A stretch of DNA of 56,994 nucleotides from a virus (taxonomy: Duplodnaviria; Caudoviricetes). The notes under the pieces were generated by a model. That model ran no database searches. It was not told the DNA's origin and saw nothing but the letters and a program-made list of their open reading frames with translations. A program made the translations under genes and the position numbers. The stretch spans positions 1-56,994 of IMG/VR virus record IMGVR_UViG_3300014613_000030; one strand, written 5' to 3'. Positions 10,099 to 24,818 of the stretch are shown in pieces (positions within the stretch are counted from its first letter, which is position 1; every line of letters begins with the position of its first letter).

Positions 10099-10290
10099 TT
10101 AATCTCCTTCGCAGCAAATTTTGCATGGGAGATAATCATATTCCCATTTTTTGTCATTGAACACAAATATCTCTTTTGCTCTTTTTAATCCAGGACAATC
10201 TTTACTCTCGTGCGCTTTTCTATGTGGAACCCATACTAATGGGATGAATCCCGTTGTGCTAAATGGTTTTTTACTAAAATATAGTTTCAT
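10099..10290 (-). CDS. Small Zn-binding protein inserted into dnaE (resembles the Ada metal-binding motif)
   Basis: H...C...PCKIC; GGAGG RBS; ATGA overlap with the dnaE-N stop. Confidence 0.65.
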   Translation of the reverse strand: MKLYFSKKPFSTTGFIPLVWVPHRKAHESKDCPGLKRAKEIFVFNDKKWEYDYLPCKICCEGD

Positions 10291-12998
10291 TTTATTCCTC
10301 CTTTCCTTTTTTCGTCCATTTTTCTTTCAGACCACTTTTTTACAGCGGATTCTATAAATTCTTCTTTAAAAGCAAAAAAGTCTTTTTGATTCTTCGACTT
10401 TATCACCTTTCTCATTTGTTCGGATTTAATGGCATCCATTCCAGCAAATTCAGAAGCACATCTCATCACATGTTCTGAGTATACTAAGACTCCAAGGCTA
10501 TCTTTTACAACTGCTTCCATAGATGGATGTTTATAGGTTATTTTTTCTCTACCATGTTTTCTGTCAATATAGTGATCAAATGCTCCTGAAGCCAATGGGC
10601 CAGGTCTATCTGCTGAAATTGCAAATATGATATCTTCTATATTATCTGGTTTCATTAATCTTAAAAAATGTTTCATTTTAACATCGTTTAATTGAAAAAC
10701 ACCAAGATTTTCTCCTTTAGATAAGGACTTGTAAACGGCTTTGTCATCAAGTGGGATTAACTCTAATGATATTTCTTTATCATGTCTTTCTTTAATGAGA
10801 TCTATTGATTCGTTTATTATCGTCAAATTTTTGACACCAAGAATATCAAGCACAGTAGCTCCGACTTCATTTAAATATTCTTCATATGTATGAGAGTTTT
10901 CCCATTGGGTACAGAATACTCTTTCACCTCCCTTATCTGCAGACAACTTGTTAGTTCTGACAGGGAGCCAATGATGATATGGTTCTGGAGAAACAATAAT
11001 CCCTGCTGGATGTAATGATTCTGCGTATGCATTTCCTATTATTGGCTTCACATATTTGTCAAACCATTTTTTGTTATTAGCAAACCATTCTGATACTTGT
11101 GATTTTTCAAGATCTTCTTCTTTGTCTGGCATGATCTTTGTTATTTTATTTATTTCTTGATATTGAAATGGTTCAAGTTTTTCTTCCAGTATTTTTCTTT
11201 CTTTATCAGTTTTTACATTCTCAATTTTTTTCTTGATGTCGAAAGCCTCTACTCTGGCCATGTTTTTTACTGCTGCCTTGAGTTGTGTTCTTCCGAAACT
11301 TCCGACAGAACAAATATGATCATCACCATACTTGTTCTTAACATACTTTATGGCCTCATCTCTAAATGTGTGTGATATGTCCAAATCAATATCGATATCA
11401 GCCATTCTTGCCTCAATTCTAGCAGGGCTGATAAACCTTTCAAATAGTATATTGAATTTTATTGGATCCACAATAGACATTCCTATTAGCCAGAGAACAA
11501 CACTCCCATTAGCTGATCCACGAAGGGAGCATAAACAATCTCTACCTTTTAAATGTCTTATTAGATCATCAAATATTAGGATATATGAAATAACTTCCAT
11601 TTTCGTGAAAGCATCTATTTCTCTTTCTATTCTATCAAGATAAACCTTTTTGTCTCCGAATAATTCCTTGGTTTTTCCTTTTAGCCCAATTCGAACCCTG
11701 TATCTCAGATACTCTTCTTCTGATTGGCCTTTCTTGTAATAAGGAAAATCCTTTATTTCTATCTTGGGAATTCGAAGACCACCAGTTGGGATTTCATAAT
11801 TACATTTATCTGCAATTTCCACTGTGCTATTAATAGCTTCATTAAAAGAATTTTTAGGGATATACTTACACTTATTCTTCCATGTATCTTGTATCTCTTC
11901 GTATGATTTTAACCATATTGAATCACAATATGCTTCTGAAAGGTCTGAATCTATCTTCATTCTTATAACTTTTGCCTGAACTTCATGCATTCCTTTATTA
12001 ACATAGTGAACGTCATTTGTGATAACAAGTTTTATGTCTATCTCTTTTGCCATTTTTATGAGTTTAAGGTTATAGTCTTTTTGTATGTCTACACTATTTT
12101 CATCTCGTATATTGTGTAGCTGTATTTCTAAATATAAGTCGTTGCCAAAGAGTTTTTTGAGCCATTTAGCCTTATGGTATGCGTCTTTCTCACTGCCATA
12201 GACTAAGTCCTTGCCCATCAAACCCTTTAGGCAAGCCGTTAACACTACTAAACCATTGCGATGCTTTGTAAGCATTTTATAATCAATTCTTGGACGATAA
12301 TAAAAGTTTTCCTGTGACCATGACAGCTTTTGTAGAGCTAATATATTTTTATAACCATCTTCATCTTTTGCCAATAACACGATATGATTGTTTGATCTAT
12401 TATCGCCATCGTGAATTGTGGCATCCTTGACGATATATGTTTCTACTCCAAAGATAGGCTTTATTTCGAGGGTCTTAGAGACAAGATTGAGTTCCATATG
12501 TGCGGATACATTGCCATGATCTGTAACCGCCATTGCATGCATTCCAAGCTCTTTGGTTCTTTTCAAATAATCAGATGTCTTTGTTACTCCATCGAGGAGG
12601 GAATGATCTGTATGAATATGTAAGTGTACGAAAGGAGATCTGATCTTGACTTGTCTTTTCCTATTTGTAATTGGAATAAGTTGTTCAATTTTTATTGGAA
12701 GGATTGCGCTTTTGAGTTTTTTGCTTTTTCTTGGTTTAATTATTATTGAACTTTTTTCAAGAAAATATGGATTACCTTTGAACATAATAACTAATCTTTT
12801 TATGTTACTTGGTATTTTTTCGTAAATTTTTACTGGAATATTTGTTTCTTTCTGTTCTTTAAATTCATAGTTAGTTTCATACAAGAAGAATTTCCCGAGA
12901 TTTGAAAGTATAATGTATGAGTTTTCATCAACCTTTATTGATTTCACTATTTTTAGGTTGTAATCTAACCTTAATTTCTGCGAGTAATCCTTTAACAT
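10287..12998 (-). CDS. dnaE: DNA polymerase III alpha, N-terminal part (PHP and catalytic core)
   Basis: HLHIHTDHSLLDG, TDHG, GVETY, NDVHY, RGSANGS, FERFISP, DIDIDLD, HPAG, DILG, GVFQL, RPGP; about 120-aa extra N-terminus. Confidence 0.95.
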   Translation of the reverse strand: MLKDYSQKLRLDYNLKIVKSIKVDENSYIILSNLGKFFLYETNYEFKEQKETNIPVKIYEKIPSNIKRLVIMFKGNPYFLEKSSIIIKPRKSKKLKSAILPIKIEQLIPITNRKRQVKIRSPFVHLHIHTDHSLLDGVTKTSDYLKRTKELGMHAMAVTDHGNVSAHMELNLVSKTLEIKPIFGVETYIVKDATIHDGDNRSNNHIVLLAKDEDGYKNILALQKLSWSQENFYYRPRIDYKMLTKHRNGLVVLTACLKGLMGKDLVYGSEKDAYHKAKWLKKLFGNDLYLEIQLHNIRDENSVDIQKDYNLKLIKMAKEIDIKLVITNDVHYVNKGMHEVQAKVIRMKIDSDLSEAYCDSIWLKSYEEIQDTWKNKCKYIPKNSFNEAINSTVEIADKCNYEIPTGGLRIPKIEIKDFPYYKKGQSEEEYLRYRVRIGLKGKTKELFGDKKVYLDRIEREIDAFTKMEVISYILIFDDLIRHLKGRDCLCSLRGSANGSVVLWLIGMSIVDPIKFNILFERFISPARIEARMADIDIDLDISHTFRDEAIKYVKNKYGDDHICSVGSFGRTQLKAAVKNMARVEAFDIKKKIENVKTDKERKILEEKLEPFQYQEINKITKIMPDKEEDLEKSQVSEWFANNKKWFDKYVKPIIGNAYAESLHPAGIIVSPEPYHHWLPVRTNKLSADKGGERVFCTQWENSHTYEEYLNEVGATVLDILGVKNLTIINESIDLIKERHDKEISLELIPLDDKAVYKSLSKGENLGVFQLNDVKMKHFLRLMKPDNIEDIIFAISADRPGPLASGAFDHYIDRKHGREKITYKHPSMEAVVKDSLGVLVYSEHVMRCASEFAGMDAIKSEQMRKVIKSKNQKDFFAFKEEFIESAVKKWSERKMDEKRKGGIK

Positions 12999-13179
12999 AT
13001 TCTTCTCCTAATCCCTCCTTGTTATGTTCTGAATATAAATATGGTGGTTCTACATTTTCCATTTTAATCCAATTCAGCATACCAGAAAGGTTACTTACTA
13101 ATCCTTCAAATTCATCAATGTTTTTAATTACTAAAATTTGAATTCCACTCATTGATAAAAATTTCATAATGTTTTCCAA
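12928..13179 (-). CDS. Hypothetical protein
   Basis: 83-aa ORF overlapping both neighbours. Confidence 0.5.
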   Translation of the reverse strand: MENIMKFLSMSGIQILVIKNIDEFEGLVSNLSGMLNWIKMENVEPPYLYSEHNKEGLGEEYVKGLLAEIKVRLQPKNSEINKG

Positions 13180-14408
13180 TCTCCCGTAATATATTTATAT
13201 GTGTTATCTGTTATTGCTCTGTGTTGCTTAAGTGATGATAATGAATTATTAAACAATGATTCGATTTCGTTCCTTATTCCTTTTTTCTCAGAACGCCTCA
13301 TGAGCCCTTCAATTGTTGCTATGTATATATCATCTTCGAGAATATATTCCAATAATGTTAAAGCAGCCTTATATAACCCATGTTCAATTAAGATATAAGA
13401 TGAAACAGATATGAAATAATCTCTAAGTGGGGAATTTAATACATGATAGCTTTCAGGTATGTTGTTAGTGATAATTTCTGTTAAACTTTGTTCTAATAAG
13501 CTGGTAGGATCAGTAAATGCAATTAGTTTCTCAAAAACAGCTATTGCTTTTTCGATAGTATGATAAAAATCTTCCAAACTATCAAATCTGTTCATAATAT
13601 TTGGTTTGTTTGTTTCATAATAAACATTGTAATTATGGCTTAGAATATCACCGATTCTTTTTTCCATTGTCGTATAATAATGGAAAGAGGTTGCATAATG
13701 ATTATATGTTCCTAATTTTAAACCCAGAATAGATGCAATTATTTCTTGCAAAAATGTCCACTCAAAGATGTTAATGTTATATGCTCCCCATATCACATCG
13801 TTGCTTCTGAGATACGTGTAACAATTAAGTCTGTTATCTCTGACAAGAAACTGTATAAATATCGTGCATGGTCTATCTTTTGTTTTAAAATCAGGATCGT
13901 AATCCCATGTAGGGTCTGGGATCATAATTATGGATTGTCTTGTGAATTTATCTTGTTTTATTGCTTTTATAGCATTTAAAATTTGGTCGGTATTTTTTTT
14001 ATCTAATTGGGATATTTCATAATTTTTTGAAGGGGCATTCCAATTCTCATCATAAAGAAAAAATCTGTTATTTAGTACATCATAAACTCTTAAACGAGGG
14101 CCATATGCTCCTCCCCATAAGAATGGAGTATTCGGGTCAGCATAATCTACACAGTTTGGTAAAAAGAATTTAAGAAAATTCAAATCATTTCTTCCAGAAA
14201 ATACCCAAAATGTCTCTGCAATAGTTGCAGATATATTATTATACCTATATGGTTGAGTTAAAAACCTCATTCTTGGATTTGTTATAGCGAAATTATATCC
14301 GGTTATCTCTATGACATCTGTTCCTCTTGTGTGATATGGTTGCCCATCTTTTTTAAGATCGTTAAGAGAATTTCTAAATGACGAATTTATGTCAGATGTG
14401 CTATGCAT
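13164..14408 (-). CDS. Thymidylate-synthase superfamily enzyme, probably dUMP hydroxymethyltransferase (5hmdU synthesis)
   Basis: AYGPR, TRQ, KDRPC, RSNDVIWG..IN.FEW.FLQE, GTY.H...SFHYY; Asn, not Asp, near the specificity position; about 150-aa C-terminal extension. Confidence 0.8.
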   Translation of the reverse strand: MHSTSDINSSFRNSLNDLKKDGQPYHTRGTDVIEITGYNFAITNPRMRFLTQPYRYNNISATIAETFWVFSGRNDLNFLKFFLPNCVDYADPNTPFLWGGAYGPRLRVYDVLNNRFFLYDENWNAPSKNYEISQLDKKNTDQILNAIKAIKQDKFTRQSIIMIPDPTWDYDPDFKTKDRPCTIFIQFLVRDNRLNCYTYLRSNDVIWGAYNINIFEWTFLQEIIASILGLKLGTYNHYATSFHYYTTMEKRIGDILSHNYNVYYETNKPNIMNRFDSLEDFYHTIEKAIAVFEKLIAFTDPTSLLEQSLTEIITNNIPESYHVLNSPLRDYFISVSSYILIEHGLYKAALTLLEYILEDDIYIATIEGLMRRSEKKGIRNEIESLFNNSLSSLKQHRAITDNTYKYITGDWKTL

Positions 14409-14410
14409 CT

Positions 14411-14635
14411 CTATTCCTCCTCTTCTTTCATGATAGAATTAATTTCGTCTTCTTCAAGAGCTTCATCAATAGCATTACCTATGATCATTATGTCGGCTAT
14501 TCTTTTGATATTTCTTCCAATAAATAAAAGAGCAACTCCTATGAGCATTTGAACCATTATGCTTAAAAAGAAATATCCTTCAAAACTTCCCATTATCTTT
14601 TCCATTTCCATATCAGTTTCCTCCGAGCAATTCAT
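14411..14635 (-). CDS. Small membrane protein
   Basis: One TM segment and an acidic tail. Confidence 0.6.
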   Translation of the reverse strand: MNCSEETDMEMEKIMGSFEGYFFLSIMVQMLIGVALLFIGRNIKRIADIMIIGNAIDEALEEDEINSIMKEEEE

Positions 14636-15635
14636 TAGCAGACATCAAAACCAAAGTCCCGGCAAGGCTCTCAATTCTCCTTCTATTAAGATAATCATGT
14701 TCTTTAGCAAATCTTGTTGTTAGATCAAGAACTGTATAGAGGTCTAAATCAAGATTAATTGCCTCCTCTTCTTTTTCATCAATCATCATTTTTATAACGA
14801 GTTTCTCGTTAGTATCGAATTTGCTTTTTCCAACAGCATTTCTTATCTTTTTTACTTGGTCCTCGCCATGCGATAATGATTTGACCGGGTTTTTTTTCAT
14901 AATCTTAAAAGTATCTCCAAGCATTTTTCCATTTGCATCAACTGTTTTGATATTTGTATTTAGTTGGTCTAAAAATATATCTTCATTCATTGAAATTGAA
15001 TAACTCATTTTGAAACCGTTTAATAGTGGATGCTTTTCTCTCATTACTAATCCATTTGTGCAAACAAGCCTATTGAGATACGGAAAACCAGTTGTTGGAA
15101 AATGCCCAACATCACTCGACATCAATTCAAGACCGATGTTCATAACATCTCCCTTGGATACTTCTACTGGCTTTTCGGCATCAGAGGTGACAACTCTAAT
15201 TCCATAATCACTGTAGGACCCAGAGTGAAAAATATTTCTTCCTATTCCTGAGCGTTCTAGGACTTTGGTATCTCTTACAAAACGATGACTTGGTTTCGTT
15301 ATTGCCCTTACTTCATTATCTTGGGTACACATCATAATTTCTGAATCTTCAGTGTACTCTTCTTTCATCCTATTGATATCTCTAATCAACATATCAGTTG
15401 GTGCTTTTTTATAATAAAAGTTTACTGGCATCTGAAATGTCCTGAGTAAAGTCTTCATTCCTGAATCTCTCAACGGATAAGTCTTGCCTTTTACTTTTAA
15501 CCCATCTTCTTTTAAAGTCCAATCTTTAAATTCAACTGTTTGTTCTTTTTTTGTTTTATCTTGTTCTCTTAAAAAACCAAGAAAATTACTTTGCTTTTTA
15601 AAATTCTTTATTTCGTTCGGTATTAAGTCTATCAT
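14613..15635 (-). CDS. DUF932-like phage protein
   Basis: SSDVG...RLVCTNG motif. Confidence 0.6.
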   Translation of the reverse strand: MIDLIPNEIKNFKKQSNFLGFLREQDKTKKEQTVEFKDWTLKEDGLKVKGKTYPLRDSGMKTLLRTFQMPVNFYYKKAPTDMLIRDINRMKEEYTEDSEIMMCTQDNEVRAITKPSHRFVRDTKVLERSGIGRNIFHSGSYSDYGIRVVTSDAEKPVEVSKGDVMNIGLELMSSDVGHFPTTGFPYLNRLVCTNGLVMREKHPLLNGFKMSYSISMNEDIFLDQLNTNIKTVDANGKMLGDTFKIMKKNPVKSLSHGEDQVKKIRNAVGKSKFDTNEKLVIKMMIDEKEEEAINLDLDLYTVLDLTTRFAKEHDYLNRRRIESLAGTLVLMSANELLGGN

Positions 15636-15799
15636 TTTTCTTCCTCCTCGTTTTTAATTTGGTCAAGCATCGGAGACCATCTTTCATACCAATTCTTAAA
15701 TAATTTCCTATCCCCACTACGTTTAAATTCATCAAGAGCATTCATTACATCATTAAAAGCTTCTTCTAATGCCTTCCTGCTTAATTGTTCATCAGCCAT
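15632..15799 (-). CDS. Small hypothetical protein (55 aa, not in ORF track)
   Basis: MADEQLSRKALEEAF...EEEK*; GGAGG RBS; ATGA overlap with the next gene. Confidence 0.6.
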   Translation of the reverse strand: MADEQLSRKALEEAFNDVMNALDEFKRSGDRKLFKNWYERWSPMLDQIKNEEEEK

Positions 15800-16166
15800 T
15801 ATTACCTCCGTTTTTGTTTAAATCCTTTTTATAGCTATCACTAATTAATGCCCATCCAGGATAATGTAATTGAACTTTTCCGCCTACATCTTTTTCAAGA
15901 GCCAAAGCATCCATACACCACAGACATAATATCCCACCTACGCCTTCAATGCTTTTAAGGTTAGGCTTGCCCATAATTGTATTCCATATTTTGTTTTCAA
16001 CTACAGCGTCTATACTGTCTCTTCTGCCGCATCTTTGACAAGCAGAAACATCATGTCTTGGCTGGTGTAAATGGTTCAATCTACCTAATTCACTTTCTGC
16101 TACCTTTAAAGCACTAATAAGTTCATCTCTAGTCATTGCATGATAATATCTCATCATAATCTCCAT
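15792..16166 (-). CDS. Zn-finger hypothetical protein
   Basis: CQRCG...W...GGILCLWC. Confidence 0.7.
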   Translation of the reverse strand: MEIMMRYYHAMTRDELISALKVAESELGRLNHLHQPRHDVSACQRCGRRDSIDAVVENKIWNTIMGKPNLKSIEGVGGILCLWCMDALALEKDVGGKVQLHYPGWALISDSYKKDLNKNGGNNG

Positions 16167-16726
16167 TTTGGTTTTTGCCTATAAATATACAATACAGCTT
16201 TTTTAGCATAATGTGCAACGTTAAAGTTGGAGCATTCAAAGCCCAAACGTTGAAGACTCCAAGGGCGATTTCTGGTTGCTGATGGTATTTCACATTTTCC
16301 TTCTCTGCCTTTTACTGTTCTGTTAACACAATACTGACATTCTTTGTGAACAAGAAACATCAAAGTATCATAGTTCCCATTTCTTATATATCTCAACAAT
16401 AACGGGTAAGCATCTTTTGAGAGTTTTATTGTTTCTACATCATCTACTGATTTCCCATGCTTATCTATATGCGGATACTTTACTATCTTTCCTCCTTCTC
16501 TTATAATTAAATTTCCATCAATGATTTCATCGCACCAGGGGCATTTTCTTATTGTTCCAAATTTCCCCTTAAACTCATATATATCCATTATCTTTCCATC
16601 AAGCCATGGAAGAAATAAGGATGTTTGAACAGGACTTTCATTGCAATAAAGAAAACATTTATTTTGAGTTATTTTAAGCGATGGATTTTTTATTCTTAGC
16701 CTTCTAACCAATTCAAAATTTTTCAT
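16154..16726 (-). CDS. Cys-rich protein, divergent DUF2284-like
   Basis: ECQYC...KC...RPWSLQRLG resembles the DUF2284 C-terminal CxxC..C..RPSxExxG pattern. Confidence 0.4.
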   Translation of the reverse strand: MKNFELVRRLRIKNPSLKITQNKCFLYCNESPVQTSLFLPWLDGKIMDIYEFKGKFGTIRKCPWCDEIIDGNLIIREGGKIVKYPHIDKHGKSVDDVETIKLSKDAYPLLLRYIRNGNYDTLMFLVHKECQYCVNRTVKGREGKCEIPSATRNRPWSLQRLGFECSNFNVAHYAKKAVLYIYRQKPKWRL

Positions 16727-16938
16727 TTATTCACCTTTATAAGAAGATCTTCTGGGTAATGCATGAATGTTCTTTTTTTCTTATTTTTAAGAGTTCTCCT
16801 GTTCTGGTTTTCTACAATGTGCGGGCCATATGGCCTTTCAATTCCTAAATGTGTTCCTCTGAGAAATACTTCTTGTCCATCTTTAACTTCAAGCCATGAT
16901 ATTGATCTGAATCCTTCTAGTTGCGACTCGGTTATCAT
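16723..16938 (-). CDS. Hypothetical protein
   Basis: 71 aa; GGAGG RBS. Confidence 0.65.
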   Translation of the reverse strand: MITESQLEGFRSISWLEVKDGQEVFLRGTHLGIERPYGPHIVENQNRRTLKNKKKRTFMHYPEDLLIKVNK

Positions 16939-16953
16939 TTTATTAACCTCCCT

Positions 16954-17352
16954 TTACACTAGGAATAAATTTTTCTTTGGGTTATTTTTTAGAAATTTCT
17001 TTATTGTATCTTCTGTTCCACCTTTCCTATCTTTAGATATGCAAGCTATTATCTTATCAGAACTTATTGCTACATCAGTATTTCTTATAAACAATGCTGC
17101 TGGACTTCCATATTTTTTGAAGTTAGGGTAGAAAATCATTATCGGAATTCCATATTTCTTTGCTATTATTTCTGCAAAACGATCACCACCTTTTGGACAT
17201 CCACCAGAACATATCCAATCTTCTCCTTGATATAACTTAAAAAACTTTTTTTCAACCTTCTCATAAGCAACTGATGAATCTCTTCTTCTGGTTCCTATTA
17301 TGCCTATAACCTTAATTAATTCAGGAGTTTTTATCATCATCTTCCTCTTCAA
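16954..17352 (-). CDS. SLOG-superfamily (YspA/DUF2493-like) protein
   Basis: IGIIGTR, SGGCPKGGDRFA, YG..A...RN, GGT..TI. Confidence 0.8.
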   Translation of the reverse strand: MKRKMMIKTPELIKVIGIIGTRRRDSSVAYEKVEKKFFKLYQGEDWICSGGCPKGGDRFAEIIAKKYGIPIMIFYPNFKKYGSPAALFIRNTDVAISSDKIIACISKDRKGGTEDTIKKFLKNNPKKNLFLV

Positions 17353-17509
17353 CTTCTTCTATGGTGACTTTAATTGTCCTATCTTCGTAATCTCTAAATA
17401 TTTGTTCAACAGTTTCAGTATCTATAAACAATCCTTTATCTACATCTTCCCAGTTACCATAAATATTTCTTTTCACTTTGCCTATTACAACTTTAGATTC
17501 TAAAGTCAT
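17321..17509 (-). CDS. Hypothetical protein
   Basis: 62 aa; GGAG RBS. Confidence 0.6.
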   Translation of the reverse strand: MTLESKVVIGKVKRNIYGNWEDVDKGLFIDTETVEQIFRDYEDRTIKVTIEEVEEEDDDKNS

Positions 17510-17510
17510 T

Positions 17511-18137
17511 TTATTTCTCCTTCACTAACATCATAGTCACAGCTGTTAGGGAATTTATTACAGGAAATTCGTAATCAATATCTAAATTTTCCAGCATTTT
17601 ATAAACATCAATCCCTATAGCTTCAAGTGATGGGAGACATCCTCTTACGCACGGAGGGTTATCCCGATTTTCGCATTTAAAAGCACAGAGATTGCAAGGC
17701 CCTTGTATCAGACCAAAACATTTATATCCTGACTTTCTCAATTTTGCTCTATATATAGCTGTTAGTCGAGTTAGTTCCCTGCTTTGTCCTGCTTCTGTCC
17801 CCTTTAGTTGTCTTCCTTTTTTAATTTTAAACTCTATGTGGGATAATTCTTCTTTATTAACCTTCCAACTTTTTGTTCCATCATTTTTCCATACAAAGAC
17901 TATTGCAGTATCAAAAGATCTTATAAATTTTACTGTTGACTGGATTGTTTTAAATTGCTTGTATGTTTGCCAAAGATATGGCGGACAAGAAATCGAACGA
18001 GACCAAAGTCCGCAATGTAGACAGCCAAATCTTGCAATCAGATCTAATGGTATTTTTGAAGGTTTAATATATCTTATTTCAGATAAACATTCAGGAAATT
18101 CAAAATTATCAATTATTTTTTTTAATATATTTTTCAT
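17511..18137 (-). CDS. DUF2284-family predicted metal (Fe-S?) binding protein
   Basis: GCLHCG....SCPP and GPCNLC...C....PC...PSLEAIGIDV. Confidence 0.78.
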   Translation of the reverse strand: MKNILKKIIDNFEFPECLSEIRYIKPSKIPLDLIARFGCLHCGLWSRSISCPPYLWQTYKQFKTIQSTVKFIRSFDTAIVFVWKNDGTKSWKVNKEELSHIEFKIKKGRQLKGTEAGQSRELTRLTAIYRAKLRKSGYKCFGLIQGPCNLCAFKCENRDNPPCVRGCLPSLEAIGIDVYKMLENLDIDYEFPVINSLTAVTMMLVKEK

Positions 18138-18314
18138 TTAATCAGTATCCTCTGGCTTATTATTTAAGAGTGCAGCATTCTTCAATTTATTAATAAGACA
18201 TAAATGACAAGTACACTTATCTCTTAAACTTATTATCTTACAGCTACCAAAATGATAAGGTCTCCACTGATCCGTTAGCATAGATACTATTTCTGTTATC
18301 TCTTCTTTATTCAT
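18138..18314 (-). CDS. Small Cys-containing protein (58 aa, not in ORF track)
   Basis: MNKEEITE...CTCHLC...EDTD*; abuts both neighbours. Confidence 0.55.
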   Translation of the reverse strand: MNKEEITEIVSMLTDQWRPYHFGSCKIISLRDKCTCHLCLINKLKNAALLNNKPEDTD

Positions 18315-18470
18315 TTATTTTTTCTCCCTATTCCTTATGGGCTTTTCCCTATATTTTTGAACCGTGAATAAACTGATATTTAATCTTTTTGATATAATTT
18401 TTCTAGACAATCCCTCGTTTGCAAGTTTTTTGATTCTCTCAATTTTCTCATTCGAAAGTCTTTTAGTCAT
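18315..18470 (-). CDS. Small helix-turn-helix protein (51 aa, not in ORF track)
   Basis: IKKLANEGLSRKIISKRLNISLFTVQKY matches a resolvase-type HTH pattern. Confidence 0.65.
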   Translation of the reverse strand: MTKRLSNEKIERIKKLANEGLSRKIISKRLNISLFTVQKYREKPIRNREKK

Positions 18471-18804
18471 TTAGTAATTCCTTTGCATGACTGATTGCTA
18501 ATTCAATTTCATTTATCGTAAACTCTTCACTTAGGGTATTATTATCCTCTCTATGCCATCGAACAAAAAAACCATTATCATCTGAAATAAGCCATAACCT
18601 TTTAGTTCCTAATCCTTGTATCGGAGAGGAATATGGAGAGTTTCCGGCCCTCAGGTCTTCCCCGAAAACAATATATGGGCCTTGGTATTTATCAAACGAT
18701 TTAATAACACCATTCAATGCTTTTGCGACAGCAGCATGTATAGGCCATTCTTCTCCATTTGAATCAAATCCATTTTGATCTATCCAACTCATTTCTCCAG
18801 TCAT
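18463..18804 (-). CDS. Hypothetical protein
   Basis: 113-aa ORF within the operon. Confidence 0.7.
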   Translation of the reverse strand: MTGEMSWIDQNGFDSNGEEWPIHAAVAKALNGVIKSFDKYQGPYIVFGEDLRAGNSPYSSPIQGLGTKRLWLISDDNGFFVRWHREDNNTLSEEFTINEIELAISHAKELLND

Positions 18805-18805
18805 T

Positions 18806-19105
18806 TTATTTTCCTTTCTTAATGAAGTCTACATCTTCTGGAAAAGCAAATTTGTCATTAGAATGGTCCGATAATTTTATTCTAAGTAATTTTATTGTTT
18901 TAATCTTCGTTAGATATGGTTGGCCGATGGGCCCGAGAAGAGGATGACTATCACCTGAATTATATATGCCTTCTTGCTTATAGGCTAATCCCACATACCA
19001 TCCGATTTTGTATGTTTTTTTCTTGGACCATATTCTTTTCTTTTCTATATATTCTGGAAAAGCAAAAGCTTTTATTCTTACTTTACATCCTATTTCTTTA
19101 GTCAT
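18806..19105 (-). CDS. Hypothetical protein
   Basis: 99 aa; GGAGG RBS; ATGA overlap. Confidence 0.7.
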   Translation of the reverse strand: MTKEIGCKVRIKAFAFPEYIEKKRIWSKKKTYKIGWYVGLAYKQEGIYNSGDSHPLLGPIGQPYLTKIKTIKLLRIKLSDHSNDKFAFPEDVDFIKKGK

Positions 19106-19290
19106 TTAACGTCCTCCTTCTTTTTATTTTCTTCATTCATTTTTAATATTTTCGGTAATGTAAGGCATACTATAATAATAAATGAAATAAATGTCACCAT
19201 AAGATTGTTTCCAGAGGGCCATATTAGGTCTATGAAAAAAGATTCAATAACAAAAACTATACTGTAGAGTATTATTAGTCCTATATACAT
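19102..19290 (-). CDS. Small two-TM membrane protein
   Basis: Two hydrophobic segments; GGAGG RBS. Confidence 0.65.
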   Translation of the reverse strand: MYIGLIILYSIVFVIESFFIDLIWPSGNNLMVTFISFIIIVCLTLPKILKMNEENKKKEDVK

Positions 19291-19304
19291 CTTTCAATCC
19301 TCCT

Positions 19305-19826
19305 CTATGTTTTTAGATGTTTCACGTATGTTCTTTTTTTAATGCATGACTTTGGTTTCGCCAATAAAGCAAGTTTTCTAACTGTGTTAAGTCCCCTCCT
19401 TATATGTTCAAGTTTTAATCCAGCATTTCTGCAAGTTGCATATATGTTTAAACCAAATCCCTCTCCTACGGTCATATACCTATTTAGGTTTTTAATTTTG
19501 ATGAACCTTTTAGCTCTCTTGTGTACAATATTATCTATCGTTCTTTGCCAATATAATAGATTTTTACATTGCCTTTCTGTCCAATTAGGATGAGCTTTCT
19601 TCATTTTCATGGCATGGTTTTTTAAATCAAAGTTTTTGAAAACGAGATACATGGGCTCATCTAAATCAAATACATTTTCAAATTGATATTTATGTGCAGA
19701 TGAGAATTTACAACGAGGATAATTTTTACAAAATTTCTTTTCATAATATGGCAAAGCACACCATAAGTTTGATCTTTTGACAGATACTGTTTTTATATGA
19801 TTTCTATTTAACCTTAGAATAAACAT
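19305..19826 (-). CDS. DUF2284-like protein
   Basis: WCALPY...CKNY..C, NLLYWQ, EGFGLNIYAT...AGL.LE. Confidence 0.55.
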   Translation of the reverse strand: MFILRLNRNHIKTVSVKRSNLWCALPYYEKKFCKNYPRCKFSSAHKYQFENVFDLDEPMYLVFKNFDLKNHAMKMKKAHPNWTERQCKNLLYWQRTIDNIVHKRAKRFIKIKNLNRYMTVGEGFGLNIYATCRNAGLKLEHIRRGLNTVRKLALLAKPKSCIKKRTYVKHLKT

Positions 19827-19841
19827 TGCTTCTTCTCTATT

Positions 19842-20135
19842 TTATTCTCCTAATTTTAGACTTAATTCATAAAGTTTTAACGTCCAATATCCAGACATTG
19901 TTATTGAATACGGTCTACCGAACATTCCGCATTTTAGTCCCAAAATTCCATGTACATCATAGAGCCATATGATTCCTCTCGGATAAATTCCAACTTTTTC
20001 TACAACATCATTAACCCAAGGTTGAGGCATTGCCCAGTCATAGTTTACTCCTTTTTCTTGGAGTTCATCTAATCCTAATTCTTTTACTCTTTGTCCAAAA
20101 CTCGGAAACCAATCTATGGATGGATTATAATCCAT
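19842..20135 (-). CDS. Hypothetical protein
   Basis: 97 aa; GGAGG RBS. Confidence 0.7.
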   Translation of the reverse strand: MDYNPSIDWFPSFGQRVKELGLDELQEKGVNYDWAMPQPWVNDVVEKVGIYPRGIIWLYDVHGILGLKCGMFGRPYSITMSGYWTLKLYELSLKLGE

Positions 20136-20145
20136 TTTATCCCTC

Positions 20146-20454
20146 CTATTCTTTTTCTTGGTGCATTTCTTTAGTACATTTACTTTTTCTTTCCCATCTT
20201 GATAAAATCATTCTAACTTTTCTACTTCGATATTCATGTTTGACTAAATATTCCAATGTTAAGGCTCCACTATGATCTAAATATGGAGAAACTATTATCA
20301 ATTTAACTGGTCTTCTTGATCTTGTATATTTCGATGCTATTCCGTCATTATGTTGATTTAACCTTCTTATGATATCAGTTGTTATTCCACAATAATAAGA
20401 GTTATCGCTGCATTTTATTAGATATACTTTCCATATCTTACTATTTGCATTCAT
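20146..20454 (-). CDS. GIY-YIG nuclease (UPF0213/YhbQ-like)
   Basis: VYLIKCSDNSYYCGIT.D..RRL.QHN.G...KYTR.RRPV...A...E. Confidence 0.9.
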   Translation of the reverse strand: MNANSKIWKVYLIKCSDNSYYCGITTDIIRRLNQHNDGIASKYTRSRRPVKLIIVSPYLDHSGALTLEYLVKHEYRSRKVRMILSRWERKSKCTKEMHQEKE

Positions 20455-20836
20455 TTAATTTCATTTCTTCTATTATTTGAACTGCTCTTGCCCATCTTTG
20501 TATTGTTGATTTCTTAATTGTTTTGACAGTGATTGTTACTTTATCAGGATAATTATGGAAAGTTATTTTCCCATCTTTATCAATTGATTTCTTCGCAGTT
20601 ATCCAGGGATTAGCTCCATTTAGATGATGGTTCCATATTAGTAGTGCTATCGGGATAACATTTTCAGTTATTCCGATCTCTGTTAAAAGGTGGATAAGTC
20701 CTTTAATTCTTTCAGTAATTCCCGAATTAAAGAATACTCTTAAAGATTTTGTTCTTAATACGTCTAATCCTATCCCTTCTTTTTCGAATCTTTTATTAAT
20801 CTTACCGGCCAATTGCTGATCGATTCTTTTTGCCAT
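20441..20836 (-). CDS. Hypothetical protein
   Basis: 131 aa; GGAGG RBS. Confidence 0.7.
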   Translation of the reverse strand: MAKRIDQQLAGKINKRFEKEGIGLDVLRTKSLRVFFNSGITERIKGLIHLLTEIGITENVIPIALLIWNHHLNGANPWITAKKSIDKDGKITFHNYPDKVTITVKTIKKSTIQRWARAVQIIEEMKLNECK

Positions 20837-20852
20837 TTTATTTCCCTCCTAT

Positions 20853-21884
20853 TTATTTCTCCTCCCAAGGTCTTTGTACTGGTTCGGTATATGGTTTTCC
20901 TTTAGTGGCTATCCTTACGTTAGCCACATCGCGCATTGTCGGTTTCGACATAGCTTTCTTTCCAAGCTTATCTGGCAATAAACCAACTCTGTATGATCTC
21001 GTCGTGCATCCTAAACATACACCTCCATTCATTTGTTTTCGCAAACCATGATATAAAAATTTTCTTGCTGATTTAAAATACTTATTGTTCCATAGATCAT
21101 CTATTCCATCATAATTAACAATATTTCCACACTTATAAATACCTCTAAAATCATCACAGCATAAAGCAACATTGCCATCCCATCTTATACTCATCTCCCT
21201 AAACGGTTTTGCACATCTCTTATTATCCATTGCATTACTTAATGGAAAAGCACACCCACAATGGTTGGACAAGTGTGAGTGGGTCCCATATGTTTGTTCG
21301 GAAATATCTCTTATTACTACAAGATGACGATCACTTGGTTTTCTCCTTGTATGCGGAGATGCTTTTTTGTTATCTGGATAAAAAAATAATTCTGGAAACA
21401 ATTTTTTTCTAAAATCATTCAGAAGTAAAATTCCATCAACAATTTTTTCACCTTTATATTGATCTAAAGCGAGAATGTTTAATCCGTAAGAAAATGCTTT
21501 ATATATATTCTTTGGTTTTAGAAAACCTATCCCATTTGAAGTCATCATTATGGAGGCCCACGGTAATCTTTTCCTAAATATTTTTATTATATCAATAAAA
21601 TTAGGATTAAGGCTAGGTTCTCCATGCATTGCAAATTCTATTCTGGAATTCCAATTTGCTTCTTTTATTCTATCTGCAATTAGTTTTGCCGTATCAATTG
21701 ACATAAAAAAGTATGGTTTACTATTCTTTCCATTTTTTTGTTTAATGCTATTTGCCCCATTATTTCTGATTCCTTGCAGTCCACAAAACCAACAGGCCAG
21801 TAAACATCCTTCAGTGAGCTCAATCTGAAGAGCGTTTGGGGGTTCTTGATGATTTGAAAGCTCTTTTCCACTGGATTCTAACAT
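20853..21884 (-). CDS. Radical SAM enzyme with SPASM/twitch domain
   Basis: IELTEGCLLACWFC (CxxxCxxC), HGEPSLNP, TSNG, CAKPF...WDGNVALCCDD...GN...CLGC. Confidence 0.92.
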   Translation of the reverse strand: MLESSGKELSNHQEPPNALQIELTEGCLLACWFCGLQGIRNNGANSIKQKNGKNSKPYFFMSIDTAKLIADRIKEANWNSRIEFAMHGEPSLNPNFIDIIKIFRKRLPWASIMMTSNGIGFLKPKNIYKAFSYGLNILALDQYKGEKIVDGILLLNDFRKKLFPELFFYPDNKKASPHTRRKPSDRHLVVIRDISEQTYGTHSHLSNHCGCAFPLSNAMDNKRCAKPFREMSIRWDGNVALCCDDFRGIYKCGNIVNYDGIDDLWNNKYFKSARKFLYHGLRKQMNGGVCLGCTTRSYRVGLLPDKLGKKAMSKPTMRDVANVRIATKGKPYTEPVQRPWEEK

Positions 21885-22623
21885 CTCGCCTTACCTCCAT
21901 TCCTTTCCATCCTGATTTAGATTTCTTTTCAACTATGCTTACAAAATCTGGATGTAGTTCTTTTAATTTTATTGCTGATTCTTTTTGGATATCATTATTT
22001 CTATAAAGAGAACATCCTCCAGGTGCATTTGTTCCCATTTGATCCCATGCGCAGTCGGTTATAATTGCATTTTTATGTCCATTTCTTAAGAAGGTCAGTA
22101 TAACATTAAAATCTTCCATCACAATTGTTTGATCAAATCTTGCATTTATTTTTGCAAATACTTTTGTATCGATTGCATGAATATTGTTTTGTCTTACACA
22201 CGTTTTAATTTTGTCCGGAAAGAATCTATTATTTCCTGATCTGGCTGAGAGCCCAACAAGCGGATAAACTTTGCATAGTTTAAACATTCTTATAAAAATA
22301 TTTTCAATCTCTTCTGTAGTCGCTTTTCTTAAATTAAATGCATTTTGATTTTTTCTTACAAAAAACAAATGATCATCATCACACATTATTATTCTTTTTA
22401 ATCCTTTTTCAATTGAATAATCCATTATCCATTGTCTTGTTTTGGCAATTCCCTCCATATCACATCGCAATACTTTATATCCTAATCTTCTATGCATTGG
22501 GGCTTCATGGGAGGGGCCTACTAATTTAATATTATATTTCCTAATGAACTCTTTTGTAAAAGAGCCATATGTATCTTGGATTCCAATTCTTCCTCTTGTT
22601 GGTATAAATATTTGTTCAAACAT
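21820..22623 (-). CDS. GT-A fold glycosyltransferase, TAGT / J-glucosyltransferase (GREB1-C)-like
   Basis: IFIPTRGR, GIAKTRQWI, IIMCDDD, MEDF...L..L..G, GGCS.YR, L...HP..V, IQWK. Confidence 0.82.
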   Translation of the reverse strand: MFEQIFIPTRGRIGIQDTYGSFTKEFIRKYNIKLVGPSHEAPMHRRLGYKVLRCDMEGIAKTRQWIMDYSIEKGLKRIIMCDDDHLFFVRKNQNAFNLRKATTEEIENIFIRMFKLCKVYPLVGLSARSGNNRFFPDKIKTCVRQNNIHAIDTKVFAKINARFDQTIVMEDFNVILTFLRNGHKNAIITDCAWDQMGTNAPGGCSLYRNNDIQKESAIKLKELHPDFVSIVEKKSKSGWKGMEVRRDVRIQWKRAFKSSRTPKRSSD

Positions 22624-22624
22624 T

Positions 22625-22822
22625 TTACGTTCCTTTATTGGTTTTTTCTAGGATATGGATTAATTCTCTTTTTTCATCAATTAGATCAATTAATTTGTTT
22701 TTTTCTTCTTCGGTTATTGTTTTTTCTTTAGTCTCATATATTATATTAAAAGTTATTTTTTTAAGGACTCTTTCATCTTGGGCGTCATCTATCCTTTTTA
22801 CGATTGAATGGTATGCGGTCAT
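22625..22822 (-). CDS. Small helical hypothetical protein
   Basis: 65 aa; coupled to both neighbours. Confidence 0.6.
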   Translation of the reverse strand: MTAYHSIVKRIDDAQDERVLKKITFNIIYETKEKTITEEEKNKLIDLIDEKRELIHILEKTNKGT

Positions 22823-23682
22823 TTTTCACTCCTTTTTTGTAATAACATCATCCACATTTTAGAAAGGTTCATATCTTCTACAGTTACAAACATACTGTTA
22901 ATTATAGATGTCGGGAAAAGAGATGCCATGTTTTTTATTATATCTGAATAAGATGATCTACTTTTATACTCTCTTCTTGGAGTAATTCCACATCTTTTTG
23001 CTACTTTAAAACCATTACTCTCTACTAACGGAATAATTTCTTCAAAAGACCACTCATATTTATGACTACCACATGATTCATTCTTCCAAACCCATTCTTC
23101 TCCTTCTTTTCTTTTTAGATTTGGAGAAGAAAGAATGACTATTCCATTATTTTTTAAATTTCTTTTTATATTGTCGAAAAGAAATGGAACTTTTTCTCTT
23201 TCTATATGTTCGATGGTTTCAAGACAAACTATGACATCGCCTTTATAAGGCATTTTTATAGGTTTAGTGAGATTAGCCAGATAGTGATTAAACCTATCAT
23301 TTCTTTTTGGTATAATATTTTTTCTTCCACCTATAAGTCTCTTTTTATTACCATCAACTCCATGATATGAAATCTTTGGCCATCCAAAGTAATTGCAGTT
23401 GTAACGCCAGTATGCATAGAATTGGCTCCACGAACAACCAAAATCAATGATTGTCATGATCCTTTTTTCTTTCAACGAAAGAAAATAATTTTTTGTCCAA
23501 TTTAATGCTATCATGAATCTTAACATTTGTGAGATATCCCATGGAGAAAACCATCTCATTTTTCTTGGATTATGTAAATCTATTGTACCATCAACGAGAA
23601 GTGAAGATTCATTTATCAAGTTTTCATCATAATATTTATGAATATAGATTTCTCCATCCTTTTTAAATTCGGAATACTTCAT
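22819..23682 (-). CDS. Class I SAM-dependent methyltransferase
   Basis: IIDFGC (motif I), YHGVD, DVIVCLETIEHI, L...G...LSSPN, H.YEW. Confidence 0.85.
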   Translation of the reverse strand: MKYSEFKKDGEIYIHKYYDENLINESSLLVDGTIDLHNPRKMRWFSPWDISQMLRFMIALNWTKNYFLSLKEKRIMTIIDFGCSWSQFYAYWRYNCNYFGWPKISYHGVDGNKKRLIGGRKNIIPKRNDRFNHYLANLTKPIKMPYKGDVIVCLETIEHIEREKVPFLFDNIKRNLKNNGIVILSSPNLKRKEGEEWVWKNESCGSHKYEWSFEEIIPLVESNGFKVAKRCGITPRREYKSRSSYSDIIKNMASLFPTSIINSMFVTVEDMNLSKMWMMLLQKRSEK

Positions 23683-23762: not shown

Positions 23763-24818
23763 CTACTTCTTCGTCTTCTTCTTTTTCTTCTTAGGGGCCT
23801 CTACTACTTCCTCAACAACCTTCTTCTTTTTCTTCTTAGGGGCCTCTACTACTTCCTCAACAACCTTCTTCTTTTTCTTTACCACTTCCTTTACCTCCTC
23901 TTTATCCGATTTCTTAGCTTTTGCCTTCTCTGCCAATTCCTTCCCCTTAACTACTCGATCCTTAGAAGTTTGTCCAGCTTTCTTGATTGCGGCTTTCATT
24001 CCTTTACCAAAGTCCGGTGGTAATTTCCCCAAAGGGAGAGCCGCTATTACATCATAAGGGGGTTTAGCCGAGTTAAGGTCCTTATATTGTTTAATGGATT
24101 TAATAGGAATTTCTTTGCTAGACATTCTGTTAAAAAAGAAACACAATTTGCTATCTGTATTTTTAGCACCAACTACTGATAGTACTATCACATTGCCTAA
24201 TTTAAACACAGAAAGAGATGTCTTATGGGTTACTTCAAGATCATAATCCTCAGCTATTCCATCTATAATCTCTTTAAAGGTATTAGGGATTACACCGTTT
24301 GAGATGAAGTCCTTTTTCGTTTTAGTGATCTTTTTCATCTCTTTTTTGTCAGTTTCTACAACTGTCTTCTTACCCTTCTTTTTCTTTTTAGGGGTCTCTT
24401 CCTCGTCTTCCTCCTCGTCCTCGTCTTCCTCCTCTTCCTCGTCTTCCTCCTCTTCCTCCTCGTCTTCTACTTCCTCGTCTTCTACTTCCTCGTCTTCTAC
24501 TTCCTCGTCTTCTTCCTCATCCTCTTCTTCCTCATCCTCTTCTTCCTCATCCTCTTCTTCCTCGTCTTCTACTTCCTCGTCTTCTACTTCCTCGTCTTCT
24601 ACTTCCTCGTCTTCTACTTCTTCGTCTTCTTCTTCCTCTTCGGTTTCCTCTTCCTCCAGATTTTCAGCCGTTTTGACTGCACATTTCGACTCTTCATCAC
24701 CACCAAACTCACATTTTTCAGTACAGTCTTCTTCTTCGCCATCATACATCCCGAAACATTCCGGAATCACCAACTTCTTTACTTTCTTTTTTGCTTTGGC
24801 CATGTTGTAGCCCTCCAT
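23763..24818 (-). CDS. Charge-segregated protein: Cys module, poly-Glu/Asp tract, globular core, Lys-rich repeat tail
   Basis: IPECFG..C...C...C; (EVEDE)n and (EEEDE)n; KKKKKVVEEVVEAP twice; own promoter and terminator. Confidence 0.8.
   Translation of the reverse strand: MEGYNMAKAKKKVKKLVIPECFGMYDGEEEDCTEKCEFGGDEESKCAVKTAENLEEEETEEEEEDEEVEDEEVEDEEVEDEEVEDEEEEDEEEEDEEEEDEEEDEEVEDEEVEDEEVEDEEEEEEDEEEEEDEDEEEDEEETPKKKKKGKKTVVETDKKEMKKITKTKKDFISNGVIPNTFKEIIDGIAEDYDLEVTHKTSLSVFKLGNVIVLSVVGAKNTDSKLCFFFNRMSSKEIPIKSIKQYKDLNSAKPPYDVIAALPLGKLPPDFGKGMKAAIKKAGQTSKDRVVKGKELAEKAKAKKSDKEEVKEVVKKKKKVVEEVVEAPKKKKKKVVEEVVEAPKKKKKKTKK
23774..23880. repeat. 45-bp tandem coding repeat, two copies plus a partial
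   Basis: TTCTTCTTTTTCTTCTTAGGGGCCTCTACTACTTCCTCAACAACC repeated. Confidence 0.85.
24397..24655. repeat. 15-bp coding repeats encoding EVEDE/EEEDE
   Basis: TCTTCTACTTCCTCG and TCTTCTTCCTCATCC units in tandem. Confidence 0.85.

Follow-up and report, generated by a model that had tools for sequence, protein, structure and literature searches.

A conserved viral cassette predicted to place an oxidised sugar on 5-hydroxymethyluracil in DNA

The virus record IMGVR_UViG_3300014613_000030 (Duplodnaviria; Caudoviricetes), a linear IMG/VR contig of 56,994 bp that was analysed in its complete length and is called the window below, encodes a thymidylate synthase (TS)-fold enzyme, a GT-A glycosyltransferase (GT) of the TAGT family and a BtrN-like radical S-adenosylmethionine (SAM) enzyme with a SPASM domain, here termed rSAM. 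We consider it moderately probable that this locus directs a phage DNA hypermodification built on 5-hydroxymethyl-dUMP, in which the TS-fold enzyme would supply the hydroxymethyl group, the TAGT enzyme would glycosylate it and the rSAM would oxidise the sugar. The outcome would probably be a DNA base not yet described, an oxidised sugar on hydroxymethyluracil in place of thymine. A preliminary description of this DNA had proposed a broader route, in which glycosylated 5-hydroxymethyluracil (5hmU) was tailored by both radical SAM chemistry and methylation. What is conserved and novel is narrower, namely the triad of GT-A enzyme, BtrN-like rSAM and dUMP hydroxymethylase; comparative genomics backs this three-gene core, and the route turns out not to lie wholly apart from known 5hmU machinery. 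The co-oriented block outlined in that description does contain TS-fold, TAGT, radical SAM/SPASM and class I methyltransferase genes together with one DUF2284 gene, upstream of a split DnaE and an HD-domain YfbR-like protein that lie downstream on the coding strand as it had reported (Table 1), but the extra DUF2284 genes were not recovered and the SLOG gene is weak.

The three core enzymes

The TS-fold enzyme matches PF00303 (E 3.6e-20, 72.6 bits vs a cut-off of 24.3) and phrog_3676 (E 5.6e-58), and it keeps the catalytic Cys, aligned with E. coli C146. Its best sequence match in the PDB is the CMP hydroxymethylase MilA, and the position that specifies the pyrimidine, N177 in E. coli, is Asn in the window enzyme and Asp in MilA; Asn at this position specifies uracil, and Asp is found in cytidylate hydroxymethylases. 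An alignment of 46 sequences (the window enzyme, 34 further enzymes from the related loci described below, nine phage references, and T4 gp42 and E. coli ThyA as outgroups) has Asn at the N177 position in 44/44 phage TS-like sequences, which also carry Asp at the L143 position (42/44), a gap at W80 (42/44) and Asn or Thr at H147 (44/44). E. coli ThyA carries W80, L143 and H147, and in TS it is W80 and L143 that keep water away from the methylene intermediate. In a FastTree phylogeny of the 46 sequences, from which T4 td was omitted because an intron splits it, the window enzyme pairs with that of locus L002 (support 0.993) and then with that of Maribacter phage Colly_1 (0.918), and these three are nested in a clade with PhiW-14 gp230 and the SH-Ab 15599, ViI-like, SPO1-like (CP-51) and M6-like (ZC01) enzymes; this clade of annotated phage dUMP hydroxymethylases excludes T4 gp42 and ThyA. 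PhiW-14 gp230 and the ViI-like, SPO1-like and M6-like enzymes are also the top phage matches of the window enzyme. On its sequence features, the window enzyme is very probably a dUMP hydroxymethylase. Separately, in Colly_1, the source of the closest cultured relative of the window enzyme, the TS-like gene shares a stretch (L066 2294-7053) with genes for UDP-glucose dehydrogenase, an epimerase/dehydratase and a ‘beta glucosyl transferase’, which suggests that this cultured flavobacterial phage makes another uncharacterised glycosylated hydroxymethyl-pyrimidine.

The GT covers nearly the whole PF20691 profile (45.8 bits vs a cut-off of 27.5, profile positions 3-205 of 205) and matches phrog_842 (E 2.1e-45). 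Its DDD motif (D81-D82-D83), the GT-A DxD motif for the metal and the nucleoside diphosphate (NDP)-sugar, is invariant in 29 homologues. Relatives of the GT in cultured phages adjoin TS-like genes: MW202897.1 has neighbours annotated ‘glucosyl transferase’, ‘pyrimidine hmase’ and ‘hd domain’, LuckyBarnes has the gene order TS-GT-GT, and PhiJL001 has the order GT-gp23-TS with a dCMP deaminase close by. BLAST detected no similarity to T4 beta-GT in the GT-A and GT9-like proteins of the window or in the representative of the GT-B-like cluster c7 introduced below.

The rSAM open reading frame (ORF) overlaps the GT stop and begins at an ATG preceded by GGAGG at 9 nt. The protein has a SPASM match (PF13186, E 6.7e-10) and invariant cysteines at C26/C30/C33 (CX3CX2C), C223, C241, C242, C289 and C292; as judged from sequence, the C-terminal set fits one auxiliary cluster, a predicted count. 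A Foldseek search with the AF2 model (pLDDT 90.9) returned BtrN (4m7t) at E 9.2e-16 and the next entry at 2.1e-8, and VIA-align superposed the two over 239 of 246 residues (Z 25.1, rmsd 2.6 A, 24% identity) with the next best entry at Z 15.8; anSME scores Z 14.5 in this comparison. The reaction of BtrN is the oxidation of a secondary alcohol on an aminocyclitol, so by its structure the rSAM resembles a carbohydrate-type alcohol dehydrogenase. No curated NCBIfam radical SAM family reached its cut-off, and the PADLOC pVip model matched only at E 0.004. In GenBank phages the rSAM had one weak match (23.6% identity), and the cassette was found in no cultured phage. The most economical reading of the modelled structure is that rSAM would be a radical SAM dehydrogenase acting on a sugar, either borne on DNA or beforehand as an NDP-sugar.

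Conservation of the cassette among viruses

Scanning IMG/VR with the window rSAM gave 55 related loci at 34-54% identity, and homologues of 43 window proteins were counted by tblastn in these loci plus L001 (MW202897.1). A GT homologue is present in 41/55 rSAM loci and a TS-like gene in 38/55, and the usual order in gene maps is [HMUDK_hel]-GT-rSAM-TS-(small ORF)-PolA-HD, with ORFs that often abut or overlap. When GT-like genes are counted so as to take in TAGT, the divergent GT-A clusters c43 and c51 and the GT-B-like cluster c7, one of them lies within 6 kb of rSAM in 54/55 loci and within 300 bp in 41/55; at the sole locus lacking one, rSAM lies 178 nt from the locus end. Cluster c43 is probably a divergent GT-A (profile comparison probability 72%). 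Two further assignments were tried and dropped: comparison of cluster c29 with the GT profile gave no support for it as a GT, and neither was there support for the GT9-like ORF of the window as a member of c7. The co-occurrence anticipated in the preliminary description held for TS-like, TAGT and rSAM genes, which recur together, but not for the methyltransferase, which was in the window only.

A profile search with the rSAM family in 1.84 billion representatives (50% identity clusters) returned about 520 family members at E<=1e-30, and the best 150 family representatives include two TAGT-rSAM fusion proteins (P0042 and P0044). These fusions, together with a linkage to GT genes that holds whatever the GT fold, favour a sugar-related role for rSAM. 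One other protein among the best 150, P0050, is split by an intein with an HNH endonuclease just ahead of the SPASM region. Across 185,579 species genomes, just two rSAM relatives were found. One is on the contig L068 of a Verrucomicrobiales metagenome-assembled genome (MAG), which carries the rSAM-GT-TS-HMUDK_hel cassette. The other, a Methanobrevibacter MAG (L069 7072-8861), has two tandem distant rSAM paralogues of about 30% identity, and a GT and a TS-like gene were not found in L069 with the probes used. Taken together, what is conserved as a functional unit is the pair of GT and rSAM, in most cases joined by the TS-like gene, and almost all of its occurrences are in uncultured viruses. 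Contiguity of the cassette with the TS-like gene is kept in both PolA-type and DnaE-type replication modules, and a DnaE-type subgroup (L033, L036-L041 and L047) has the order GT-c29-rSAM-DnaE. The record of L040 (G003), estimated to be complete at 95 kb, carries two GT and two rSAM paralogues in tandem (L040 7419-10984).

The gene of about 300 aa that adjoins the cassette in relatives encodes HMUDK_hel (PF18723 E 1.7e-51; M6 gp55-like). In the M6/PaMx11-like phage ZC01, HMUDK_hel is ZC01_013, which matches M6 gp55 in position and lies between the P-loop kinase ZC01_012, with its Walker A motif, and the dUMP hydroxymethylase; HMUDK_hel is not itself the kinase. Homologues of ZC01_013, ZC01_015 (HD) and ZC01_016 occur among the window and the 55 loci, where the ZC01 kinase and ADDT have none. 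HMUDK_hel proteins have an invariant Cys-Glu pair, as in AADTs, and in PhiJL001 a weak overlapping ADDT match, so they may be transferase-like. Neither the window nor L002 gave an HMUDK_hel match at a threshold as loose as E<=10, although the rest of their cassette is contiguous.

Searches of the window with Tet_JBP (PF12851), HMUDK_hel (PF18723), ADDT (PF18724) and Ploopntkinase3 (PF18751) gave 0 matches at E<=10, which bears out the earlier observation that no TET, 5hmU kinase or aGPT-Pplase is visible there. TET/JBP is the partner typical of TAGT genes, a feature of genomic context and not of catalysis, and one of five relatives tested for PF12851 (G006) was positive. As a positive control, PF18724 found the ADDT of ZC01 (E 8.5e-29), whereas PF18751 missed the ZC01 kinase; its negatives consequently carry little weight, and the kinase check rests on BLAST with ZC01_012 and on a scan for Walker A motifs. 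Neither this M6-type kinase nor the AADT of ZC01 had a BLAST match in the window, and Walker A motifs occur there only in DnaB, RecA and an IstB-like protein, plus one in the DUF932-like ORF that we read as chance. Homologues of the ZC01-type P-loop kinase or AADT were lacking within 10 kb of rSAM in 55/55 loci, and no kinase or AADT was found in the complete 62-kb record G001. The statement that there is no kinase applies to the window and does not carry over to the virus as a whole, since the estimated completeness of the record is about 41%.

The proposed pathway and its alternatives

We propose that the TS-fold enzyme would first hydroxymethylate dUMP, so that 5-hydroxymethyldeoxyuridine (5hmdU) takes the place of T in replication, as its signature, phylogeny and context suggest, with the HD nucleotidase probably helping to keep dTTP out. 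The TAGT GT-A would then move a sugar from an NDP-sugar to the 5-hydroxymethyl group in DNA, a step suggested by its family and intact DxD motif, and the product would be a base-J-like O-glycosyl-5hmU. In a third step, to which structure and genetic coupling point, the BtrN-like rSAM would take a carbinol hydrogen of the sugar or of its NDP-sugar precursor and convert an alcohol to a ketone without oxygen. In the window and L002, the DUF2284 protein, of an iron-sulfur/redox type, may supply electron transfer and the GT9-like GT-B may add a second sugar, and the methyltransferase of the window may methylate the product. We put forward only tentatively the more specific idea that phages make 5-(glycosyloxymethyl)uracil whose keto-sugar is formed on the DNA polymer by an rSAM acting with, or fused to, the GT. 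If this holds, it would be the first case of a radical SAM enzyme that tailors carbohydrates with DNA as its substrate, and a base-J-like nucleobase would be reached entirely without oxygen.

Several points weigh against the proposal as a whole. Every enzymatic step in it is inferred, and the likeness of rSAM to BtrN leaves the substrate unfixed. The outgroups of the TS tree are a single canonical TS and a single dCMP hydroxymethylase. The estimated completeness of the record means that partners may lie off the contig. HMUDK_hel, counted with its own hidden Markov model, is present in 36/55 loci, which links the pathway to the known 5hmU hypermodification machinery rather than leaving it wholly separate; since the window and L002 lack this gene, the route may vary by lineage or need an off-contig partner. 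Conservation of the cassette does not extend to the methyltransferase, the SLOG ORF or DUF2284. G003 has no match to PF00303, PF18723 or PF12851, so that the GT-rSAM pair, occurring there without a detectable TS-fold gene, has no strict need of a TS-like hydroxymethylase, and in G006, where the TAGT is weak, a Tet_JBP gene adjoins rSAM. From these two exceptions, GT-rSAM appears to be a tailoring module that can be attached to differing or undetected acceptor sources. As to novelty, an association of GT-A with ThyS has already been reported bioinformatically, according to the available part of bioRxiv 10.1101/2023.12.21.572611.

Four other explanations have to be set beside this pathway. It is unlikely, though the frequent HMUDK_hel neighbour speaks for it, that GT and rSAM act after or with a 5hmU-activating P-loop kinase (5-HMUDK), an HMUDK_hel/AADT-like transferase or both, encoded off the contig, in which case the base would not be a simple O-glycoside. 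The Cys-Glu pair of HMUDK_hel is like the essential Cys and Glu of clade 2 aGPT-Pplases (PMC8989533, available portion), and the weak ADDT match in PhiJL001, the incomplete record and the blindness of PF18751 to the ZC01 kinase point the same way. Against it stand the lack of kinase and AADT homologues within 10 kb of rSAM at the 55 loci and in complete G001, the contiguous cassettes without HMUDK_hel in the window and L002, and the dispensability of M6 gp55, the positional equivalent of HMUDK_hel, in the published reconstitution (PMC8989533, in the part available).

Glycosylation of the 5-hydroxymethyl group followed by oxidation of the sugar remains our preferred reading, and a second alternative to it, which we hold to be very unlikely, concerns the alcohol on which rSAM acts. 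The enzyme could oxidise the 5-hydroxymethyl group to 5-formyl, an anSME-like primary-alcohol oxidation, with the GT acting at another position or at some sites. anSME, which turns Ser or Cys side chains into aldehydes, is among the structural neighbours, and several loci link rSAM to the TS-like gene as tightly as to the GT. BtrN nevertheless lies far above anSME (Z 25.1 vs 14.5), rSAM is linked to a GT in 54/55 loci and fused to one in two proteins, and rSAM and GTs also occur in a complete genome without a TS-like gene (G003), all of which speak against this alternative.

It is also highly improbable that the TS-like enzyme acts on dCMP as a hydroxymethylase, or else as an ordinary thymidylate synthase, with the GT glucosylating 5-hydroxymethylcytosine (5hmC) as in T-even phages. 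Such a reading would account for the PHROG label of the GT family (‘beta-glucosyl-HMC-alpha-glucosyltransferase’), for MilA as the top PDB sequence match and for the activity on 5hmC of characterised TAGT enzymes (PMC8256090 and bioRxiv 10.1101/2023.12.21.572611, as far as available). It conflicts with the Asn, rather than Asp, at the pyrimidine-specifying position, with placement in the dUMP hydroxymethylase clade that leaves T4 gp42 outside and with the 5hmU-pathway marker HMUDK_hel in relatives, and an ordinary TS is further contradicted by the absence of W80, L143 and H147. Least probable of the four is a non-DNA target (a host envelope glycan, a phage protein or a small molecule) for a GT and rSAM merely placed in the early/replication region, which would suit G003 with its lack of a detectable hydroxymethylpyrimidine source and the about 65% of GT-containing contigs without a neighbouring base-modification gene in one survey (bioRxiv 10.1101/2023.12.21.572611, available part), but not the contiguity of the cassette with the TS-like gene in both PolA-type and DnaE-type modules or the TAGT-family members shown to be DNA glycosyltransferases (PMC8256090 and the same survey, in their available parts).

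Known thymidine pathways append amino acids or amines via a kinase and a transferase, and the known phage glycosylations are, to our knowledge, on 5hmC. The proposed pathway shares with the thymidine hypermodification of M6, ViI, PhiW-14, SP10 and PaMx11 a TS-fold hydroxymethylase of the same clade and pre-replicative 5hmdU, and with the M6-type system a homologous downstream HD protein (ZC01_015), HMUDK_hel in a majority of the relatives and the use of a radical SAM enzyme for tailoring. Unlike in the M6-type system, a P-loop kinase and AADT were not found (window and 55 loci), a GT-A and a BtrN-like twitch rSAM stand in their place, and the prediction is that a sugar, in place of an amino acid or amine, is attached; the radical SAM enzyme of M6, gp53, is in the available sources an SPL-like isomerase with no SPASM domain. 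As in T-even 5hmC glucosylation, a TS paralogue would make the hydroxymethyl-pyrimidine pre-replicatively and glycosylation would be post-replicative, and T4 gene 42 likewise adjoins beta-gt, but here the base is predicted to be uracil and not cytosine (Asn vs Asp), the enzyme is a GT-A TAGT and not the T4 GT-B, and a radical SAM step is added. The predicted product class, O-glycosylated 5-hydroxymethyluracil in DNA, is that of kinetoplastid base J (JBP1/2 plus JGT); in contrast to base J, no Fe/2-oxoglutarate dioxygenase is present in the window, 5hmU would arise oxygen-free at the nucleotide level, and the sugar would probably be oxidised further. BtrN itself, the 2-deoxy-scyllo-inosamine dehydrogenase of butirosin (4m7t), superposes over nearly its full length and shares the CX3CX2C motif and the one auxiliary-cluster Cys set, whereas the window rSAM is about 100 residues longer and sits in a viral DNA-modification context with an adjacent or fused GT.

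The GT-A family PF20691 is shared with the phage 5mYOX/TET-TAGT pathways on 5hmC, in which, according to the available parts of PMC8256090 and bioRxiv 10.1101/2023.12.21.572611, secondary GTs often accompany TAGT enzymes, and the glycans placed on hydroxymethyl-pyrimidines include heptose. Unlike in those pathways, the hydroxymethyl group here would come from a TS-fold enzyme acting on dUMP, with no TET and no C5-methyltransferase. In the available text of the latter survey, GT-A matches split between 5mYOX and ThyS neighbourhoods, with ‘annotated viperins (pVip)’ close by. The term ‘radical SAM’ has 0 occurrences in the available texts of these two sources, and supplementary Figs S9-S10 of the survey may list rSAM or ‘pVip’ neighbours; since rSAM matches the pVip model, the ‘pVip’ labels may refer to this rSAM family. 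The available parts of PMC8989533, PMC5889632, PMC8256090 and 10.1101/2025.08.14.668559 cover kinase/AADT pathways, the SPL-like M6 rSAM, TET-GT pathways and T-dioxygenases, and do not describe a GT-rSAM-TS cassette. Full-text literature searches combining rSAM, GT, 5-HMUDK, TS or BtrN with phage hypermodification returned no paper describing it.

The recurrence of the cassette, in no fewer than 55 viral contigs and some 520 clusters of proteins (50% identity), suggests that glycosylated thymine whose sugar is tailored by radical chemistry forms a widespread class that has gone unstudied. Phage DNA hypermodifications set sensitivity to restriction, CRISPR and modification-dependent defences, and they also yield enzymes for labelling DNA and for sequencing chemistry. 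The locus offers testable enzymes, namely an anaerobic route to a base-J-like mark and an rSAM possibly acting on DNA-borne sugars, and ‘viperin’-labelled rSAM genes near phage GTs may be modification enzymes and not defence genes.

Neighbouring and replication genes

The window has a GC content of about 32% and carries nearly all of its genes on the minus strand; no near-identical DNA was found among 50,697 GenBank phage records. The same proteins are also encoded on a contig of 58,567 bp. A scan of the block for promoters and terminators stayed at chance level (46 found vs 53 expected, and 6 vs 5.2). Synteny with L002, the closest relative, extends over DnaB, GT9-like, primase, acidic protein, GT, rSAM, DUF2284, Cys-rich ORF, DUF932-like, TS and DnaE genes, and the genes for DUF2284, the 190-aa Cys-rich ORF, the 340-aa DUF932-like ORF and the GT9-like protein each have homologues in 1/55 loci, L002.

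Table 1. Positions of the core enzymes and of other genes of the window mentioned in the text.
Feature	Position	Strand	Family match or other evidence
HD-domain YfbR-like (deoxy)nucleotidase	8223-8891	minus	PF12917 E 3.3e-24
DnaE, smaller part	9142-10086	minus	HHH_6 and OB-fold domains, in a second ORF
63-aa ORF between the two DnaE parts	10099-10290	minus	
DnaE, larger part	10287-12998	minus	PHP, core and fingers domains in one ORF
TS-fold enzyme, predicted dUMP 5-hydroxymethylase	13164-14408	minus	PF00303, phrog_3676; 414 aa with C-terminal extension
DUF932-like protein, 340 aa	14613-15635	minus	Atlas structural match to DUF932 cluster, TM 0.79/0.82
Cys-rich 190-aa protein	16154-16726	minus	8 Cys; L002 homologue 33% identity, E 2e-27; no family match
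Weak SLOG-like ORF	16954-17352	minus	YAcAr (PF10686) E 1.6e-4, profile positions 30-66 only; phrog_289 E 1.2e-7
DUF2284 Cys-rich protein	17511-18137	minus	PF10050 E 3.2e-20, 73 bits vs cut-off 25
HTH_7 ORF	18315-18470	minus	
GIY-YIG endonuclease-like ORF	20146-20454	minus	
BtrN-like twitch/SPASM radical SAM enzyme, predicted sugar dehydrogenase	20853-21884	minus	Radical_SAM and SPASM
GT-A glycosyltransferase, TAGT family, predicted 5hmU-DNA glycosylation	21820-22623	minus	PF20691, phrog_842
Class I SAM methyltransferase	22819-23682	minus	Methyltransf_23 E 4.3e-9; Methyltransf_12/11
Acidic 351-aa protein	23763-24818	minus	Long Glu/Asp-rich repeat tract and Lys-rich tails
GT9 (heptosyltransferase)-like GT-B	25980-26903	minus	PF01075 E 3.2e-6, 27.1 bits vs cut-off 22
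PurA/PurZ-family adenylosuccinate-synthetase homologue	27546-28733	minus	PF00709 E 2.2e-55; phrog_1211 ‘PurZ’ E 6.8e-57
299-aa ORF	28736-29635	minus	phrog_2971
UDG-superfamily protein	31276-31854	minus	PF03167 E 3.3e-28

The DUF2284 protein has seven invariant Cys, and its AF2 model (pLDDT 90.6) retrieved with VIA, in almost all of the top rows, nitroreductase-like proteins or flavin oxidoreductases related to them (best Z 8.7, borderline), with nothing at E<=1e-3 by Foldseek; our guess is that it might be a redox partner of rSAM. Where up to three DUF2284-like proteins had been counted, PF10050 matches this one alone, and the Cys-rich ORFs at 16154-16726 and 19305-19826 have neither a Pfam match nor BLAST similarity to it. 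The GT9-like protein also matches TIGR02195 (E 5.4e-6, below that model's cut-off) and could add a second sugar; a phage GT-B that heptosylates 5hmC is described in the available part of bioRxiv 10.1101/2023.12.21.572611. Homologues of the methyltransferase number 0/55 in the loci, 0 in GenBank phages and three among 5.8 billion proteins, and these gave no functional clue; its earlier casting as a tailoring enzyme was an argument from adjacency. The SLOG call likewise holds only as a weak one (YAcAr at 21.8 bits, below the 28.2-bit cut-off), with no PDB relative found and homologues in 0/55 loci. The methyltransferase, the SLOG ORF and the additional ‘DUF2284’ ORFs are not supported as parts of the pathway.

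The 340-aa ORF was assigned to DUF932 by the Atlas structure search, and hhalign against DUF932 with thin profiles gave no support. It has a homologue of 39% identity in L002, and 10 relatives carry an unambiguous DUF932 gene (c13) upstream of the cassette; the 340-aa protein is probably a neighbour with no catalytic role in the pathway. The GIY-YIG and HTH_7 ORFs lie between rSAM and DUF2284, which are adjacent in L002, where both ORFs are absent, and so look like a mobile-element insertion. The GIY-YIG, HTH_7 and DUF932-like genes are likely passengers, unlikely to belong to the pathway.

The replication module of the window comprises RecA, DnaB, primase, a UvsW-like helicase, an NAD-dependent ligase, a UDG-family protein and the split DnaE. 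The HD protein cluster was found in 24/57 sources, mostly right after the TS-like gene or the polymerase, and the window HD protein has a homologue in ZC01, ZC01_015, whose gene comes after that of the dUMP hydroxymethylase. The UDG-superfamily gene, with homologues in 13/55 related loci, is carried by a phage predicted to swap T for a uracil derivative. The PurA-like protein has cellular PurA as its top PDB matches and ‘PurA-like’ genes of cluster C mycobacteriophages (31-33% identity) as its top phage matches. Neither its gene nor the adjoining gene for the 299-aa ORF has homologues in the 55 related loci (0/55), L002 included, and the 299-aa ORF was rejected as a divergent HMUDK_hel (hhalign probability 0.3%). 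Finally, the 351-aa acidic protein, encoded between the primase and the modification genes, has a counterpart in L002 (L002 7801-8898) with a poly-Glu run and 30% identity in the C-terminal part, and may serve as a DNA mimic or a histone-like protein.

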